Assembly (NCBI GenBank): GCA_021740625.1
Contig: JAIOZK010000002.1
Coordinates: 248,497 to 312,496 of the forward strand
DNA length: 64,000 nt
DNA from: Bacteroidales bacterium
GTDB taxonomy: Bacteria > Bacteroidota > Bacteroidia > Bacteroidales > JAIOZK01
Reading direction: 5' to 3'
In this document: in pieces, positions 14,776-23,620 of the stretch
Layout of the letters: every line of letters starts with the position of its first letter
How positions within the stretch are numbered: the first letter of the stretch is position 1
Program-made: the position numbers and the translations under genes
The notes under the pieces: model-generated
The model's input: the letters and a program-made list of their open reading frames with translations, nothing else
Told to the model about the DNA's origin: nothing
Databases searched by the model: none

Positions 14776-15321
14776 CTAAAACCCGCCAAATTTCTCCACA
14801 ATCCGGATGGCATTCTCCAGCCGTTGCTCACCCCGGCCCGAAACAATATGATAGTTCGAACCAAATGTCTGCAATTCTTTTTCAAACCAGCCAAAGAAAA
14901 ACTGCCTTTTATCAGGATGCTCCCTTTGTGGGTCGGATTGCCAGGGAAGATCGATATTCGTGAGTAAAATGAGGTCATAGCGGTTACTTTCAATATTTTT
15001 CAGGATCCATTCAGGACATTGATCGTATTTGTATTCTGCCCAGATCTTGCATACAATTAGCTCGGTATCGCAAAATAAAATCTCCCCTACCTTTTGTTCT
15101 TTTTCCTTCTCTTTTTTAAGCTGACCCCTGGCAATATTTTCAATATCCGTAAGCTTGTATGGATGATCCAGCTTATCAATATACTCACGGGCATATTCAG
15201 GTACCCAGTCGCACTGATAGTGTTTGGCCAGCTTTTCGGCCAGTTCTGATTTGCCGGTGGATTCCGGTCCGGTGATGGCGATCTTTATGATGCTGATTCT
15301 TTTTTCATGTCTTTTAACCAG
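14776..15321 (-). CDS. NadR-type P-loop kinase/ATPase (AAA_28-like); missing from the ORF track, probable CTG start
   Basis: Open frame KRHEKRISIIKIAITGPESTGKSELAEKLA...VPEYAREY...FCDTEL...DLPWQSDPQREHP...RLENAIRIVEKFGGF*; no ATG/GTG/TTG between the upstream in-frame stop and the Walker A motif. Confidence 0.85.
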   Translation of the reverse strand: MVKRHEKRISIIKIAITGPESTGKSELAEKLAKHYQCDWVPEYAREYIDKLDHPYKLTDIENIARGQLKKEKEKEQKVGEILFCDTELIVCKIWAEYKYDQCPEWILKNIESNRYDLILLTNIDLPWQSDPQREHPDKRQFFFGWFEKELQTFGSNYHIVSGRGEQRLENAIRIVEKFGGF

Positions 15322-15890
15322 GCCAAATATCCGACAAAGGCCAATACAGTCAATACGGCAAAAAGTATCGTTGTCGGGTATAAACCTTTATAAATATATA
15401 TGCCTACCGAAGTGGCATCCACCACAATCCAGATGAGCCAGTTCTCGATGTACTTTTTCGCCAGCATCCATGTGGCCACAAAACTCAGGGAGGTGGTGAA
15501 TGAATCCCACCAGGGAACGTCAGAATCGGTGAAATTGATCAGAATCCAGGCAATGAAGAAAAAAAGCACAATGCTGATGGACAGGAGGATCAGTTTAAGC
15601 TTCTCAGGAGACTTACGCACTGGCGCCTCCGACTTCTGCTTATCTTTTTGCTTTCCACCATGCAACCAGTAGTACCATCCGTAAAAGGAAACCACCAGGT
15701 AATACACCTGCAGCGACATATCAGCATACAACTTCGATTGTATATACACATAAATATACATGCTGACCATGATGATGCTCACCAGCCAGTACCAAACGTT
15801 TTGCCTGATCTGCAGGCTGATGGCCAGCAATCCGAGAGCGGCTGCGATCAGCTCAATGTAATTCTCCGAAACCCATTGAATAACAAGCAT
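15285..15890 (-). CDS. pnuC: PnuC-family vitamin/nucleoside transporter
   Basis: LYADMSLQVYY, YGWYYW, WDSFTTSLSFVATWMLAKKYIENWLIWIVVD motifs. Confidence 0.9.
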   Translation of the reverse strand: MLVIQWVSENYIELIAAALGLLAISLQIRQNVWYWLVSIIMVSMYIYVYIQSKLYADMSLQVYYLVVSFYGWYYWLHGGKQKDKQKSEAPVRKSPEKLKLILLSISIVLFFFIAWILINFTDSDVPWWDSFTTSLSFVATWMLAKKYIENWLIWIVVDATSVGIYIYKGLYPTTILFAVLTVLAFVGYLAWLKDMKKESAS

Positions 15891-15896
15891 TCCGGG

Positions 15897-16151
15897 CTAT
15901 TTCATGACCACATTCAGATCGGCATTGACTACCTTCATGATGAATACGGAATGGGGGAGTTCGAATGCATTTTTGATCTCCTGCTTTAAAATATCAATAA
16001 CATCATCGTAGGTCCCGAAGACCTGCGTGCTCATGCCATTGGTCTTTACTTTCAGCTCTTTGTGCGTGTTAAGCCTGTCAATGAATGATTTGATCGGGGG
16101 AATATATTCATCATTCAATGGATAATAACTTATTTCTACCGAGATATTCAT
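15897..16151 (-). CDS. Thiamine-binding protein (YkoF/UPF0045-like)
   Basis: MNISVEISYYPL...TNGMSTQVFGTYDDV pattern; TAATTTTG -7 element at 16171-16178 favours the start at 16151. Confidence 0.75.
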   Translation of the reverse strand: MNISVEISYYPLNDEYIPPIKSFIDRLNTHKELKVKTNGMSTQVFGTYDDVIDILKQEIKNAFELPHSVFIMKVVNADLNVVMK

Positions 16152-16255
16152 AGCTTTTGTTTTAGGCATGCAAAATTAAGACTTATGAGTGATAAATGAT
16201 ACATCAACTTGTATTAATTGGGCAATATACCGACATTTGCAGAAAAACAAATAAA

Positions 16256-17134
16256 ATGAAAAAAGGTGCATATACATTACTTGTCACTCCTTTCAAGGAA
16301 GATTATTCCCTGGATGAAGAAGCTTTGAGAAACATCGTCAGGATGCAGGTCGAGTCGGATATCGCAGGCATAGCCCCTTTGGGGGTTACCGGTGAAAACC
16401 CCCTGCTTTCAGATGCAGAAGTAAAACGCGTGGTTCAAATCATTGTTGAAGAGGCCAAAGGAAAAAAGTATATTATGCCTGATCTCTGCCTGATGGGAAC
16501 ACCGGAATCTATTATGCGGGCTCAGATGTATGCCGATCTGGGCGCGGATTATGTGGTAGCTTTCTCCCCATATTTTGTTTTGCCCAGGCCGGAAGGATTG
16601 ATGAAATATTATATCGATGTCGCAGATGCCTCACCCATCCCACTTATTCTGCATAGTTCAAAAGGTCGCACAGGGGTTGAGCTGACGCCGGCTATGACTG
16701 CTGAACTGGCCAAACACCCTAACATTGTTGCTACCAAAGACGGGAAGAAGGAACTTGATCATCTGGCCAAACTGATCTACCTTACAAAAGATGAAGATTT
16801 CCTGGTATTCACCGGTAAGGATACCACTGCATTTCCGACTGTAGCATTTGGTGGAGCAGGAACTTTTACTGTTGCCGGAAACGTAATTCCTGATATCATG
16901 GGAAAAATGATCAATCATGCCCTGGAAGGAAATCTAGAAGAAGCCAACAAAATGCACCTGCAGTATTACCGGCTCTTTGAAGCATGCCGTTTCGAAACCA
17001 ATCCTATGGCGGCCAAGAGAGCACTTGAGTTGATGGGAAAGATCAACGGCATGCTCCGTCCGCCCATGACAGAACTGAGTGAAGCAAAGACGCAGGAACT
17101 GAAGACCATCCTCGGCGAAAACGGATTGTTATGA
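16256..17134 (+). CDS. DapA/NAL-family (dihydrodipicolinate synthase-like) enzyme with a non-canonical active site
   Basis: Aligns without gaps to E. coli DapA up to Lys161; keeps VTPF, R138, K161, ETNP and LRPP but has V44, F107 and H133. Confidence 0.85.
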   Translation: MKKGAYTLLVTPFKEDYSLDEEALRNIVRMQVESDIAGIAPLGVTGENPLLSDAEVKRVVQIIVEEAKGKKYIMPDLCLMGTPESIMRAQMYADLGADYVVAFSPYFVLPRPEGLMKYYIDVADASPIPLILHSSKGRTGVELTPAMTAELAKHPNIVATKDGKKELDHLAKLIYLTKDEDFLVFTGKDTTAFPTVAFGGAGTFTVAGNVIPDIMGKMINHALEGNLEEANKMHLQYYRLFEACRFETNPMAAKRALELMGKINGMLRPPMTELSEAKTQELKTILGENGLL

Positions 17135-18048
17135 AAGAAATGAGCGTGCTGGCACCGGCCACAAGTGCAAATGTGGGGCCCGGCTATGATATTTTTGCCA
17201 TGACCTTGCAGGAACCCTGTGATGAAATCAGGGTTTCATTGAATGATAGTGGAAAAGTCAGCATTGAAGCTGAAGGCGATGCCCAGAACATCCCCCTGGA
17301 CCCGAATGATAATGTTGCAGGCTTGGCTGTGCTGGAACTATTGAAACGAAAGAAGATCAAAAAGGGTGTTCATATCCGGATCATTAAAAACATGATTTCG
17401 GGTGGCGGGCTTGGTACAACAGGAGCTTCAGCAGGCGGTTGCATTTTTGCACTCGATAAACTGTTAAAACTGAACCTCTCCGATAACGAAAAGGTTGACC
17501 TGGCCAGGATGGGTGAAATTGCCTCAGGTGGCTCTCCCCATGCGGACAATGTGGCTGCCGCCCTGCTGGGAGGTTTTATACTGGTGAAATCTTATTATCC
17601 CATTGATGTGCTTCGACTGGAAATGCCCGAGTTTCCCCTTGTATTGGCTGTGATCAAAAAGAGTCAGCGTACGACACGCGGTTTTATTACCTATGAGATT
17701 GGTCAGGAAAAACTGAAAGAACAGATGGCGCTGTGTTCCAGGGTTATTCATGCCGTGCATACGAAAGATATTAAGGAATTTGGAAAGGCAATCAGCGTGG
17801 ATCATATCGCGGAACCGGTGCGCTCAGCGGCCATTCCCGAATACCAGGATGTAAAAAGGGCTGTGCTGAGAGCAGGAGCCTATGGTTTCCAAATCAGCGG
17901 CGGGGGATCATCCGTAATTTCTGTTTGTGATCCTGAATTGATCGATGATGTGGCTGCTATCATGGAAAAAGGTTTTGCCGGGAATGAGAATTTTGTGAAG
18001 GTGATCAAAACCCGGACCAGTAATCTGGGGGTGAGGATCAGTGAATAA
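17131..18048 (+). CDS. GHMP kinase, homoserine kinase-like (divergent)
   Basis: APATSANVGPGYD, GGGLGTTGAS P-loop, HADNVAAALLGG, EPVR, ISGGGSS; 4-nt overlap with the upstream gene. Confidence 0.85.
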   Translation: MKEMSVLAPATSANVGPGYDIFAMTLQEPCDEIRVSLNDSGKVSIEAEGDAQNIPLDPNDNVAGLAVLELLKRKKIKKGVHIRIIKNMISGGGLGTTGASAGGCIFALDKLLKLNLSDNEKVDLARMGEIASGGSPHADNVAAALLGGFILVKSYYPIDVLRLEMPEFPLVLAVIKKSQRTTRGFITYEIGQEKLKEQMALCSRVIHAVHTKDIKEFGKAISVDHIAEPVRSAAIPEYQDVKRAVLRAGAYGFQISGGGSSVISVCDPELIDDVAAIMEKGFAGNENFVKVIKTRTSNLGVRISE

Positions 18049-18198
18049 ACCTGAAGATTTTCTTTTTGAGATTGCTTAAATCAGTGAGACTGTTATTTAA
18101 CCCCATATTCCTGCGAGAATGGGTGCTTACAGGAAACGGATCGATAAACAGGAAAAGAAATAAGAGAGTGATTTGTTTTATAATATCGAAAATATAAA

Positions 18199-18966
18199 AT
18201 GATGAAAATTGATTTTAGTGGCAAGAACGTACTCGTGACAGGATCATCCAGGGGTATCGGGAAAGCGACTGCTGAAATGTTCGCTGCTTCAGGCGCCCGG
18301 GTAATTGTGCATTACAACAATAATAAGACATTGGCCGAAACGGTTTTAAAAGGACTCGAAGGCAGTGGCCATGGTATAGCAAATGCTGATATTGCCAACC
18401 CGGAAGCCGTTCAGGGAATGGTCAAAGATATCATGGCAAAATACAAAAGAATTGATGTGCTGGTGAATAATGCCGGAATCTATGAAGAGGTCGACCTGAT
18501 GACCATGAATTTCAAAGAATGGCAGCAAAGCTGGAAAAGGACCATTGAAACCAATCTGACAGGAGTTAGTAATCTGAGTTTCCTTGTGATCAGGGAAATG
18601 GTGAAACAAGGAGGCGGCAGGATTGTGAATGTTTCATCCCGCGGGGCTTTCCGCGGTGAACCGACAGCGTTTGCTTATGGGGCCAGCAAAGCAGGACTCA
18701 ATGCAATGGGTCAGTCCATGGCAAAAGCGCTGGCCCCGCAAAATGTGTTTGTTTATACGGTGGCACCGGGATGGGTAGAAACTGATATGGCCGCCGATGG
18801 ATTGAACAGCCCCGGTGGAGATGACATCAGGGCGCAAAGTCCCATGAAAAGAGTGGCCAGGCCGGAAGAAATTGCCAGGAGCATTATTTATCTTGCTTCT
18901 GAGGGAACCGAATTTATGACGGGCTGCATCCTTGATGTGAACGGAGCGTCTTACCTCAGAAGCTGA
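18199..18966 (+). CDS. Classical SDR family NAD(P)-dependent oxidoreductase
   Basis: TGSSRGIG, LVNNAG, NVSS, YGASK, VAPGWVETDM. Confidence 0.92.
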   Translation: MMKIDFSGKNVLVTGSSRGIGKATAEMFAASGARVIVHYNNNKTLAETVLKGLEGSGHGIANADIANPEAVQGMVKDIMAKYKRIDVLVNNAGIYEEVDLMTMNFKEWQQSWKRTIETNLTGVSNLSFLVIREMVKQGGGRIVNVSSRGAFRGEPTAFAYGASKAGLNAMGQSMAKALAPQNVFVYTVAPGWVETDMAADGLNSPGGDDIRAQSPMKRVARPEEIARSIIYLASEGTEFMTGCILDVNGASYLRS

Positions 18967-21580: not shown

Positions 21581-22780
21581 ATGAAAAAAGATCCGGCTAC
21601 AAGAATTCAGATGTTAGAACAATTCGGTGAATTTGGAGGCGTGAACCCCTCGGTAACCGATTCAGCCACCTATACTTTTATGCAGGCCAAGACCATGCTT
21701 GAGACTTTCACTGGTGAGGCCGAAGGTTGCTTTTTGTATTCCAGGCACTGGAACCCGAGCAATAAATTTCTGGCAGATGCCATTGCTGCCATGGAAGACA
21801 CGGAAGCCGCCTGGGTAACAGCATCCGGCATGAGCGCCATTTCCAATGCAATCATGGGAATTTGTAAAGCAGACGACCACATCGTTTCAAGCGTTACCAC
21901 CTATGGAGGTACCTTTGCATTGCTCAACAATTACCTTCCAAAATTCAACATTGAAACCACTTTCGTTAACATTACGGATCTCGATGCGGTGGAAAAGGCC
22001 ATACGTCCCAATACAAAGATCCTTTATACAGAAAGTGTGACCAATCCATTGCTGCAAATTTCTGATATTCCCAGGCTTGCGGAAATTGCAAAAAAACATG
22101 GGATAAAGCTCATGGTTGATAATACTTTTACTCCCATGATCATTGAACCGGCGAAACTGGGTGCCGATGTAGTGGTTTACAGCCTGACTAAATTTGTGAA
22201 TGGTAAAAACGATTGTGTAGCAGGCGCCATTGCTGCAGATGCTGAGTTCATCAGCAGTTTGATCGATGTGAACGATGGAACTTCCATGCTGCTGGGACCC
22301 GTCCTGGATCCCATGCGATCATCGCAAATCCTGAAAAATATGCATACCCTCCACATCAGAATGAAACAGCACAGCGAGAATGCATCTTATCTTGCTGCCA
22401 AACTGGACGAGCTCGGATTAAAGGTTGTTTACCCGGGTTTTGATACACATCCCGGTCATGAGCTGATGAGCAGCATGATGAATGAAAAATACGGATATGG
22501 AGGCATGTTGACCATCGATATGGAAACAAGTGAACGTGCAGCCAAATTGATGGAATGTATGGAAGAAAAAGGGGCAGGTTACCTGGCCGTGAGTCTGGGT
22601 TATTTCAAAACCCTTTTCAGCAATTCCGGAAAAAGTACTTCTTCCGAAGTGCCGGAAGAAACACAAAAGGAAATGGGTATGTCAGAAGGACTGATCCGTT
22701 TTTCTGTCGGACTTGATAATGAAATTGAAAATACATTTGAAATGATCAAAGCCTGTTTGGAAGAATTGAAATTTCTTTAA
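21581..22780 (+). CDS. Cys/Met metabolism PLP-dependent enzyme (methionine gamma-lyase-like)
   Basis: YSRHWNP, ASGMSAI, VDNTF, YSLTKF (PLP lysine), AVSLG, GLIRFSVG. Confidence 0.85.
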   Translation: MKKDPATRIQMLEQFGEFGGVNPSVTDSATYTFMQAKTMLETFTGEAEGCFLYSRHWNPSNKFLADAIAAMEDTEAAWVTASGMSAISNAIMGICKADDHIVSSVTTYGGTFALLNNYLPKFNIETTFVNITDLDAVEKAIRPNTKILYTESVTNPLLQISDIPRLAEIAKKHGIKLMVDNTFTPMIIEPAKLGADVVVYSLTKFVNGKNDCVAGAIAADAEFISSLIDVNDGTSMLLGPVLDPMRSSQILKNMHTLHIRMKQHSENASYLAAKLDELGLKVVYPGFDTHPGHELMSSMMNEKYGYGGMLTIDMETSERAAKLMECMEEKGAGYLAVSLGYFKTLFSNSGKSTSSEVPEETQKEMGMSEGLIRFSVGLDNEIENTFEMIKACLEELKFL

Positions 22781-23062: not shown

Positions 23063-23620
23063 ATGAAACCAAAATACAGATTACTGGAACATCCTTTTTA
23101 TCAGGCATGGAATGAAGGAAATATTAGTATTGAACAACTTTCGAAATACGGGGCTTCCTATGCTGAATTCATTGAGAGGATACCGGGATACTGGCAAAAA
23201 ATTGCACAGGCTTTTGCAGAACAGCAAACTGTAGCAGATGAAATTATTGCTGAAGAAACTGATCATATCCCGCTCTGGAATAAGTGGACTGACAAACTGG
23301 AAAAGCAGGATGATTTTCCCAGGATGACAAAAATATTTGAAGCATTTGAAAGTATGACGGCTTCCGAACTGCTGGGCGCCATACATGCATTTGAGATACA
23401 GCAACCCGAGGTAGCCGAAACCAAAAAGTGCGGTTTACTGGATCATTACGGTTTTGAAAATTCCGACCTGACATATTTCGATGAACACATGCAGGAAGAA
23501 AAGCACATTGCTTATGGAAGGCACCTGGCCGAGAAATTCGCCCGAAAAAGTGAATTCAATGCAGGATTTGAAAAAGGCAGTAAATTGATCTATGATGGCC
23601 TAAACCTGTTTATGAATTAG
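23063..23620 (+). CDS. CADD-like heme-oxygenase-like metal oxidase (TenA/PqqC/CADD superfamily)
   Basis: LLEHPFYQAW, EETDHIPLW, AFEIQQPEVAETKKCGL, YFDEHMQEEKH. Confidence 0.8.
   Translation: MKPKYRLLEHPFYQAWNEGNISIEQLSKYGASYAEFIERIPGYWQKIAQAFAEQQTVADEIIAEETDHIPLWNKWTDKLEKQDDFPRMTKIFEAFESMTASELLGAIHAFEIQQPEVAETKKCGLLDHYGFENSDLTYFDEHMQEEKHIAYGRHLAEKFARKSEFNAGFEKGSKLIYDGLNLFMN

Follow-up and report, generated by a model that had tools for sequence, protein, structure and literature searches.

What does an enzyme with the fold of dihydrodipicolinate synthase (DHDPS, DapA) do once its proton relay has been replaced and its gene has been joined to that of a homoserine kinase? The question is raised by a 64,000-nucleotide stretch of a Bacteroidales bacterium (GenBank assembly GCA_021740625.1, contig JAIOZK010000002.1, positions 248,497 to 312,496), hereafter the window, in which the gene of a DapA-like protein, here called DapA*, is followed by genes for a GHMP kinase, ThrB*, and a short-chain dehydrogenase/reductase (SDR). 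An earlier note on this DNA had placed these genes outside lysine biosynthesis, acting on an unknown and probably phosphorylated substrate. The exclusion from the lysine pathway is probably wrong: operons with dapH, loss of dapB, decay of the ancestral dapA and retention of dapD, dapF and MurE together place DapA*, with high probability, at the entry of diaminopimelate (DAP) synthesis, where it is predicted, and likely, to replace both DapA and DapB. Our preferred reading of the chemistry, built on sequence comparison and given a probability of about 0.5, is that DapA* and the kinase would form this entry by making tetrahydrodipicolinate (THDP) directly from O-phosphohomoserine and pyruvate. 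The substrate is probably phosphorylated, as the note had supposed, with O-phosphohomoserine being predicted.

In E. coli DHDPS, whose numbering is used here, T44, Y107 and Y133 form the proton relay, according to the available part of PMC3188589. The motifs from which the earlier note had started (GVTGE, PYFV, ILHSSKGRTG, MPDLC and TGKD, together with K161 and R138) are found at the corresponding positions of DapA*, to be compared with GTTGE, PYYN, LYN and SGDD in the DapA of M. jannaschii and of Bacteroidota. The alignment to E. coli DapA, which had been described as gapless, is near-gapless (1dhp residues 3-292 against 3-292) rather than demonstrably gapless, the Foldseek alignment having 293 columns. 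The gene layout is borne out by the coordinates of the open reading frames (ORFs), with a 4-nt overlap (ATGA) between dapA* and thrB* and the SDR gene starting 150 nt past the thrB* stop. The dapA* frame is open from 16196, and since nearly all homologues are 292 aa long the ATG at 16256 is supported as its start.

The substitutions turned out to be a trait of the family. Among 120 proteins with at least 60% identity to DapA*, V44 is present in 116, position 107 is F, L or M in all of them and never Y, and D76, H133, R138, K161, K165, K188, D189 and R245 are found in 120/120, as are T45 and the GxxGE loop; N249 is also kept. In the set of 109 proteins used for locus comparison (108 loci plus the window, L029 being excluded as frameshifted), no variation was seen at V44, D76, K165, K188 or R245, and H133 is present in 108, the exception being frameshifted. 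Outer relatives, taken as the 150 best cluster representatives at 50% identity, present Y133 in 145 cases and D, E or N at position 188 in 138, with K188 in only 3. The dN/dS values were about 0.04-0.05 for dapA* (three pairs) and for the kinase (one pair), with dS near saturation. Neither relaxed selection nor substitutions peculiar to this genome were seen, and a decayed or neutral dapA variant was rejected on the basis of the residue conservation and the low dN/dS. DapA* is therefore a compact, conserved family under purifying selection.

A profile search of the 50%-identity representatives yielded one full-length DapA* representative, along with two partial matches and a single sister, P0125, which has V44, D76, L107 and H133, lacks K165, K188 and R245, and from its sequence is a possible evolutionary intermediate. 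Record P0124, of 514 aa, carries the C-terminal part of DapA* in its last 177 residues behind an unrelated N-terminus, and is probably a chimeric gene call. As even the sister has both D76 and H133, the two may constitute a dyad. In the alignment, K188 and R245 stand in the place of D and F, a site predicted to be the pocket for the second substrate. The model of DapA* (pLDDT 96) superimposes on DHDPS structures with TM scores of 0.93-0.97 and a root-mean-square deviation of 1.2-1.5, PF00701 is its only domain, and an atlas search with the homologue P0018 returned DHDPS clusters only. Databases name the members DapA; the family is misannotated as plain DapA. Its nearest relatives are proteins from Bacteroidales metagenome-assembled genomes (MAGs), at 82-89% identity, and its carriers include several Bacteroidales families, Aminicenantes-type genomes and an acidobacterium, with homologues also labelled Cloacimonetes. 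No description of the family or of a DapB bypass was found in the literature covered, most subscription journals being outside that coverage.

Carriers of dapA* mostly lack DapB. Full DapB_N matches were found in two of 28 DapA* genomes (G004 and G015), the same two that have a canonical-scoring DapA, and DapB is missing in the other 26; a match marginally over the cut-off in a 341-aa frame of G006 was counted as not DapB, and weak DapB_N matches were not inspected singly. In a sample of the order that took a single genome from each family, 90 in all and none less than 90% complete, DapB turned up in 85, and it was not found in 4/6 DapA* genomes versus 1/84 of the others (Fisher p = 2.9e-5, a value that overstates the association if families are kin). 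Most of the genomes are incomplete, related MAGs. An assembly gap was rejected as the cause of the missing dapB, because the site lies mid-contig in the window genome (G000) and in G003: in the former, parA-parB-DUF5683 continues without dapB, and in the latter dapB has been lost from the same site, where it follows DUF5683 in G004 and G015. There is no DapB domain anywhere in the window genome, so that the absence of dapB and thrC that had been reported for the window extends to the whole 95%-complete assembly, in which neither was found.

The ancestral dapA has decayed in parallel. In three genomes (G000, G002 and G031) K161, the T44-T45 motif and R138 are gone from the syntenic gene, whose products are 34-42% identical among these genomes, versus 83% for DapA* between G000 and G002; this second DHDPS-like gene of the window genome was consequently rejected as a working DapA. 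It carries G43D in the DapB-less G040 and is intact in 4/4 DapB-positive genomes and in G090. In three genomes of the genus the old gene is still a full, stop-free ORF (L062:1489-2391, L326:1077-1973 and L327:1158-2060), reflecting either slow decay or a pseudoenzyme role. Aminicenantes-type genomes also have secondary DHDPS-family matches (E-43 to E-57).

The gene neighbourhood also points to DAP. Aminicenantes-type loci have the order dapA*-(thrB*)-dapH-dapE-like-aminotransferase, followed in one locus by alanine racemase, and no reductase gene lies inside these operons. The dapH gene comes directly after dapA* or dapA*-thrB* in 10/109 loci, dapA* is translationally coupled to it, and its product was over the DapH cut-off in 3/3 of the Aminicenantes-type loci tested. 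Two loci of this type, L293 (G026:C2:18000-37999) and L298, also contain clustered LysW/aminoadipate genes (homocitrate synthase, LysX, LysZ), beside which lie thrC and another hom; hence lysine may be made through aminoadipate in these genomes, with the DAP operon possibly dedicated to the cell wall. In the window genome lysC-asd, dapD and dapF are retained, as is a MurE whose DNPR motif we take to denote DAP-type specificity, and Ddh, DapL and ThrC gave nothing over cut-off in this genome. As these downstream genes are kept, the cell must still need THDP, and the window genome has no intact DapA-family candidate other than DapA* to supply it. DapE was not found there with three queries, its amidohydrolase alternative not being searched for; Bacteroidota often use an unrelated amidohydrolase for this step, as stated in the main text of PMC13759103.

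From its sequence, ThrB* looks like a true homoserine kinase. It scores over both models of the family (NF002288, 265 versus 194 bits; TIGR00191, 172.9 versus 168.25 bits), and an Aminicenantes member is over the former and just under the latter. N14, D20, H137, D139, N140, R183 and R231 are present in 119/119 homologues and align with N17, D23, H138, D140, N141, R187 and R235 of M. jannaschii ThrB, which we take to be homoserine-binding. The altered motifs that had led to its description as divergent are real, and they are conservative changes fixed across the family, in the P-loop (T96 in 117, T97 in 118 and G98 in 119 of the 119) and in a remodelled lid (Q179 and R180 in 118/119, and also K177), although the degree of divergence was overstated for a protein that passes both cut-offs. 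The kinase gene lies directly 3' of dapA* in 78 of the 99 loci with enough flank, a count in which metagenome loci may repeat organisms. Thus the coupling of rewired enzyme and kinase holds, but not as an invariable one: in the other 21 loci the neighbour is dapH (6), a NifX/ATPase cluster (10) or another gene (5). ThrB* was found in 21/28 DapA* genomes, always as the operon copy. A prediction of a DapA*-ThrB* complex scored 0.00 and gave no answer.

GHMP and APH searches in five genomes without ThrB* produced matches, the informative family being TIGR02535 (HomK). It is over cut-off in six of the seven ThrB*-less DapA* genomes and present as a fragment beside thrC in the seventh, compared with 0/23 ThrB* genomes, and in the ThrB*-less members it adjoins thrC. 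The role of TIGR02535 was considered uncertain in the available part of GapMind 2020 (PMC7311316), and BT2402, of this family, rescues E. coli thrB according to the main text of GapMind 2026 (PMC13759103).

The reaction that we propose would proceed as follows. ThrB* would phosphorylate homoserine, and DapA* would couple the resulting O-phosphohomoserine to pyruvate bound to K161, with loss of phosphate, to give THDP for DapD or DapH, DapF and MurE. Judging from aligned residues, the GVTGE loop and T45 may hold pyruvate, R138 and D189 the amino acid end, and K188, R245 and K165 the phosphate, with the D76-H133 pair standing in for the T44-Y107-Y133 relay; the bond would probably form by enamine attack on C4, perhaps intramolecularly after transimination. 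Relative to aspartate semialdehyde (ASA), homoserine carries two more electrons, and for this reason coupling at its C4 leads without any reductase to 2-amino-6-oxopimelate, which is THDP in its open form. A start from homoserine would also explain the kinase and the basic pocket. In its boldest form, which we consider slightly less likely than not, this reading would turn a cofactor-free class I aldolase into a C-alkylating THDP synthase whose pyruvate enamine displaces the phosphate of O-phosphohomoserine. A single redox-neutral, ATP-driven step would then do the work of DapA and DapB, and the linked MetY-like enzyme would let anaerobes devoid of aspartate kinase make their cell-wall DAP from methionine.

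Homoserine would be supplied by LysC-Asd-Hom in the window organism and, in members lacking lysC and asd, probably from methionine through a MetY-like pyridoxal phosphate (PLP) enzyme. Aspartate kinase was not found in 4/5 genomes tested and strong Asd-like matches occur in 6/28, so many members likely draw their C4 unit from homoserine; dapD-like genes are kept in 5/5 asd-less members. Hom is present in 22/28 genomes, and thrC was not found in 12/23 ThrB* genomes. The long form of the Bacteroidales locus reads lrp, then metY*-hom-aor-dapA*-thrB*-sdr; metY*, hom, dapA* and thrB* occur together in 12 loci. Either an aldehyde:ferredoxin oxidoreductase (AOR; L002:3930-5675) or, in its place, an ALDH (L009:4383-5795) is encoded between hom and dapA*, and is a candidate ASA oxidoreductase for genomes without lysC and asd. 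MetY* (L002:973-2436) is a distinct Cys/Met PLP family of about 480 aa that scores below every NCBIfam cut-off listed. In L165 (G025:C9) a homoserine dehydrogenase domain lies inside a 786-aa frame whose N-terminal part presumably resembles a homoserine acyltransferase.

Neither hom nor metY* was found in the window assembly, from which the surrounding housekeeping block is also missing. Its contig C22 ends in a repeat where G003 continues with a block of about 20 kb (rfbC, lpdA and uvrA orthologues); the last 140 nt of C22 recur where five or more further contigs end and are probably a mobile element that broke the assembly beside the hom block, and the contigs of the hom-less DapA* members end at the hom site. 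A contig outside the assembly runs rfbC-lpdA-lrp, then 287 other letters, then hom, skipping metY*, at depths of 40 and 7.3 (runs X1 and X2, from which the window may derive) versus 41.2 and 6.9-7.9 for the window. True loss of hom was set aside in favour of an assembly gap, which is probable from the repeat end and the matching depth, and the window organism likely has LysC-Asd-Hom-ThrB*-DapA*-DapD-DapF and no MetY*. With metY* absent beside hom, DapA* would be the obvious consumer of phosphohomoserine in this organism. MetH is present in 5/5 genomes tested, which weakens the stronger idea that phosphohomoserine has nowhere else to go.

Several observations weigh against the direct formation of THDP from phosphohomoserine. 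The step is chemically demanding: we know of no class I aldolase whose enamine displaces phosphate from an unactivated primary carbon, and no such precedent was found in the literature. With MetH in all genomes tested, MetY* may be the consumer of phosphohomoserine, perhaps as a phosphohomoserine sulfhydrylase supplied by the kinase, and linkage to the kinase could be ordinary clustering of aspartate-family genes; the occurrence of HomK is equally explained by the thrC of the ThrB*-less members, which apparently form one lineage. Hom was not found in 6/28 genomes, including the window assembly, and its presence in the window organism relies on depth matching and about 80% identity. Four DapA* genomes keep both DapB and DapA (G004, G015, G053 and G118), and one 96%-complete Bacteroidales genome, G090 (L337), has neither DapB nor DapA* and carries an intact canonical dapA, either because of a gap or because of another bypass. 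In ten loci dapA* stands in the NifX/ATPase cluster, where the kinase gene and dap genes are both lacking. This cluster comprises DUF134, NifB-NifX, CGGC, twin 4Fe-4S ATPase and DUF89 genes; loci with second dapA* copies of this type are L017, L022, L028, L178, L179, L187, L206, L216, L230, L240, L331 and L355. The copies occupy four separate places in the tree, with unchanged active-site residues, and several times lie directly before a methionine gamma-lyase-like gene. Finally, the window genome has lysC-asd as well as the SDR, making an ASA aldol plus reductase route complete too, and Hom could be a hidden reductase.

This last route is the rival that we take most seriously, although we consider it rather unlikely. 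DapA* would be an ASA-pyruvate aldolase with a D76-H133 relay, a reductase other than DapB (the SDR, the linked Hom-family dehydrogenase or an unknown gene) would deliver THDP, and the kinase would serve Met/Thr or phosphorylate the aldol 4-hydroxyl for elimination, a larger substrate that the remodelled lid (K177, Q179 and R180) could fit. Consistent with it, DapA* is over the dapA cut-off with K161, T45, R138, D189 and N249 kept, and the wide presence of Hom, the lysC-asd pair of the window genome and MetH all fit. The SDR orthologue (at least 55% identity) occurs in 18/30 genomes, all Bacteroidales-type, comprising 18/18 Bacteroidales members of the first set, and the gene is present in 33/109 dapA* loci; close homologues are also labelled Chloroflexota and KSB1. 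The orthologue was not found in 12/12 non-Bacteroidales members (two matches at 40-42% only), nor in the DapB-less G040 and G070. These 14 DapB-less members, together with dapH operons that have no slot for a reductase, weaken the case for the SDR as an obligatory substitute for DapB; it is not a fixed partner. It has no DapB_N or DapB_C domain, and would be accessory in the phosphohomoserine reading or the DapB substitute in the ASA one. As for Hom, it scores as a true homoserine dehydrogenase (431 versus 373 bits). Moreover, an ASA aldolase leaves the replaced relay, the gained basic residues and the joint decay of dapA and dapB unexplained.

Two further schemes seem improbable to us. In one, DapB would be bypassed because a PLP partner, MetY-like or methionine gamma-lyase, activates C4 in the manner of CndF/Fub7, or because DapA* eliminates phosphate from the 2-oxo analogue of phosphohomoserine before Michael addition of the C3 unit. 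The metY* gene is indeed present in 24/30 DapA* genomes and in the 12 four-gene loci mentioned, the best solved matches of its product are Fub7, murA follows it directly in several Aminicenantes-type genomes (metY* loci L296, L297, L298, L304 and L352), and in G010 and G108 a second copy of dapA* adjoins a gamma-lyase gene. It was not found, however, in 6/30 and is apparently deleted in the window organism; the kinase keeps its amino-group ligands, and two enzyme-bound intermediates on separate proteins cannot easily meet. The other scheme makes DapA* catabolic, an ASA ammonia-lyase or phospho-lyase in a breakdown of methionine to homoserine to aspartate, with DAP being scavenged. The resemblance of metY*-hom-aor/ALDH to the canavanine route described in the available part of PMC9533460, aor in 29/109 and hom in 21/109 loci, and the ten dapA* copies outside a dap context would agree with this, but translational coupling to dapH, the dapD-like genes of all asd-less genomes tested, the lysC-asd, dapD and dapF kept in the window genome and the matching of dapB loss with dapA decay speak for synthesis.

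Table 1. Genes around dapA* in the window, with the basis for their assignment.
Feature	Position	Strand	Length	Basis
DapA* (DapA-like)	16256..17134	+	292 aa	PF00701; TIGR00674 216 vs 206 bits; fold model; conservation
ThrB* (GHMP homoserine kinase)	17131..18048	+		over both ThrB cut-offs; conserved substrate-site residues
SDR oxidoreductase	18199..18966	+		SDR families only; no specific cut-off passed among the 25 NCBIfam models listed
Cys/Met-metabolism PLP enzyme, methionine gamma-lyase-like	21581..22780	+		PF01053; below all NCBIfam cut-offs listed
PnuC transporter and YkoF-like gene	15285-16169	-
ORF converging on gcvP	23063-23620	+	185 aa	weak haem-oxygenase-like match, below cut-off

A close homologue of the PLP enzyme in Table 1 is found in 9/109 dapA* loci, a loose link that leaves its membership of the system uncertain. 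The PnuC and YkoF-like genes are divergent from dapA*, and their adjacency to it is not kept in relatives except L003; an Rfam scan of the whole window gave no match, with no riboswitch at gathering score near them.

Every DAP pathway is taken to begin with the same essential pair, DapA and DapB, both regarded as drug and herbicide targets. If true, the proposal would make this the first route to DAP that dispenses with DapB, and would give the aldolase fold a type of reaction not seen in it before, C-C alkylation being new to class I aldolases; should the mechanism hold, this pathway variant would have an NADPH-free step of possible use in lysine or pipecolate engineering. DapA* would also account for cases in which dapB seems to be missing when the metabolism of uncultured anaerobes is reconstructed. 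The main text of GapMind 2026 (PMC13759103) contains no occurrence of DapA or DapB.

We compared DapA* with its closest known systems. With DHDPS (1dhp, 2yxg and 1o5k) it shares the fold, K161, the GxTGE loop, T45, R138, D189, N249 and the position ahead of dapH, and it is above the TIGR00674 cut-off (216 versus 206 bits, the canonical Bacteroidales DapA reaching 335). It differs in the replaced T44-Y107-Y133 relay, in the acidic GDD after strand 7, which has become GKD (K188 in 120/120), in the new and invariant D76, K165, K188 and R245, in its identity of about 34% to the best solved DapA, and in being coupled to a homoserine kinase, mostly without a DapB partner. DapA* very likely takes the place of DapA, yet it is not a canonical DHDPS, differing in relay, GDD motif and DapB partner. 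NanA, KdgD, KDG aldolase, HpaI-type enzymes and HOGA have the fold and the Schiff-base lysine in common with it, but its scores fall far below the cut-offs of the first four (116/281, 117/278, 82/390 and 177/397 bits), and HOGA keeps both tyrosines and lacks R138, according to the available part of PMC3188589. ThrB*, in turn, resembles ThrB (M. jannaschii 1fwk; 4p52) in its scores and aligned substrate-site residues, and differs from it in a remodelled and conserved P-loop (GxGTTGAS), GGGSS loop and lid (KSQRTTRGFITY), as well as in its linkage to dapA* in genomes of which about half yielded no thrC.

The fungal enzymes CndF and Fub7 offer the nearest chemical parallel. CndF joins O-acetylhomoserine and a beta-keto acid into a 2-amino-6-oxo acid that cyclises (PMC11331486, available part), and the net logic proposed for DapA* would be equal, an activated homoserine and a carbon nucleophile giving a cyclic imine. 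From the same partial text, CndF and Fub7 are PLP enzymes acting on O-acetylhomoserine, whereas DapA* is a cofactor-free TIM barrel with a predicted primary-metabolite product; PLP fold-type I, absent from DapA*, is the fold of the linked MetY*. The canavanine operon encodes a homoserine-releasing PLP gamma-lyase, a homoserine dehydrogenase and an aldehyde dehydrogenase, a set similar to metY*-hom-aor; the available part of that report (PMC9533460) mentions neither a rewired DapA nor a kinase. Finally, the four DAP variants (DapD succinylase, DapH acetylase, Ddh and DapL) all share, to our knowledge, DapA and DapB upstream. DapA* genomes use downstream steps of the DapD or DapH type, and it is the upstream half of the pathway that the DapA* system alters.

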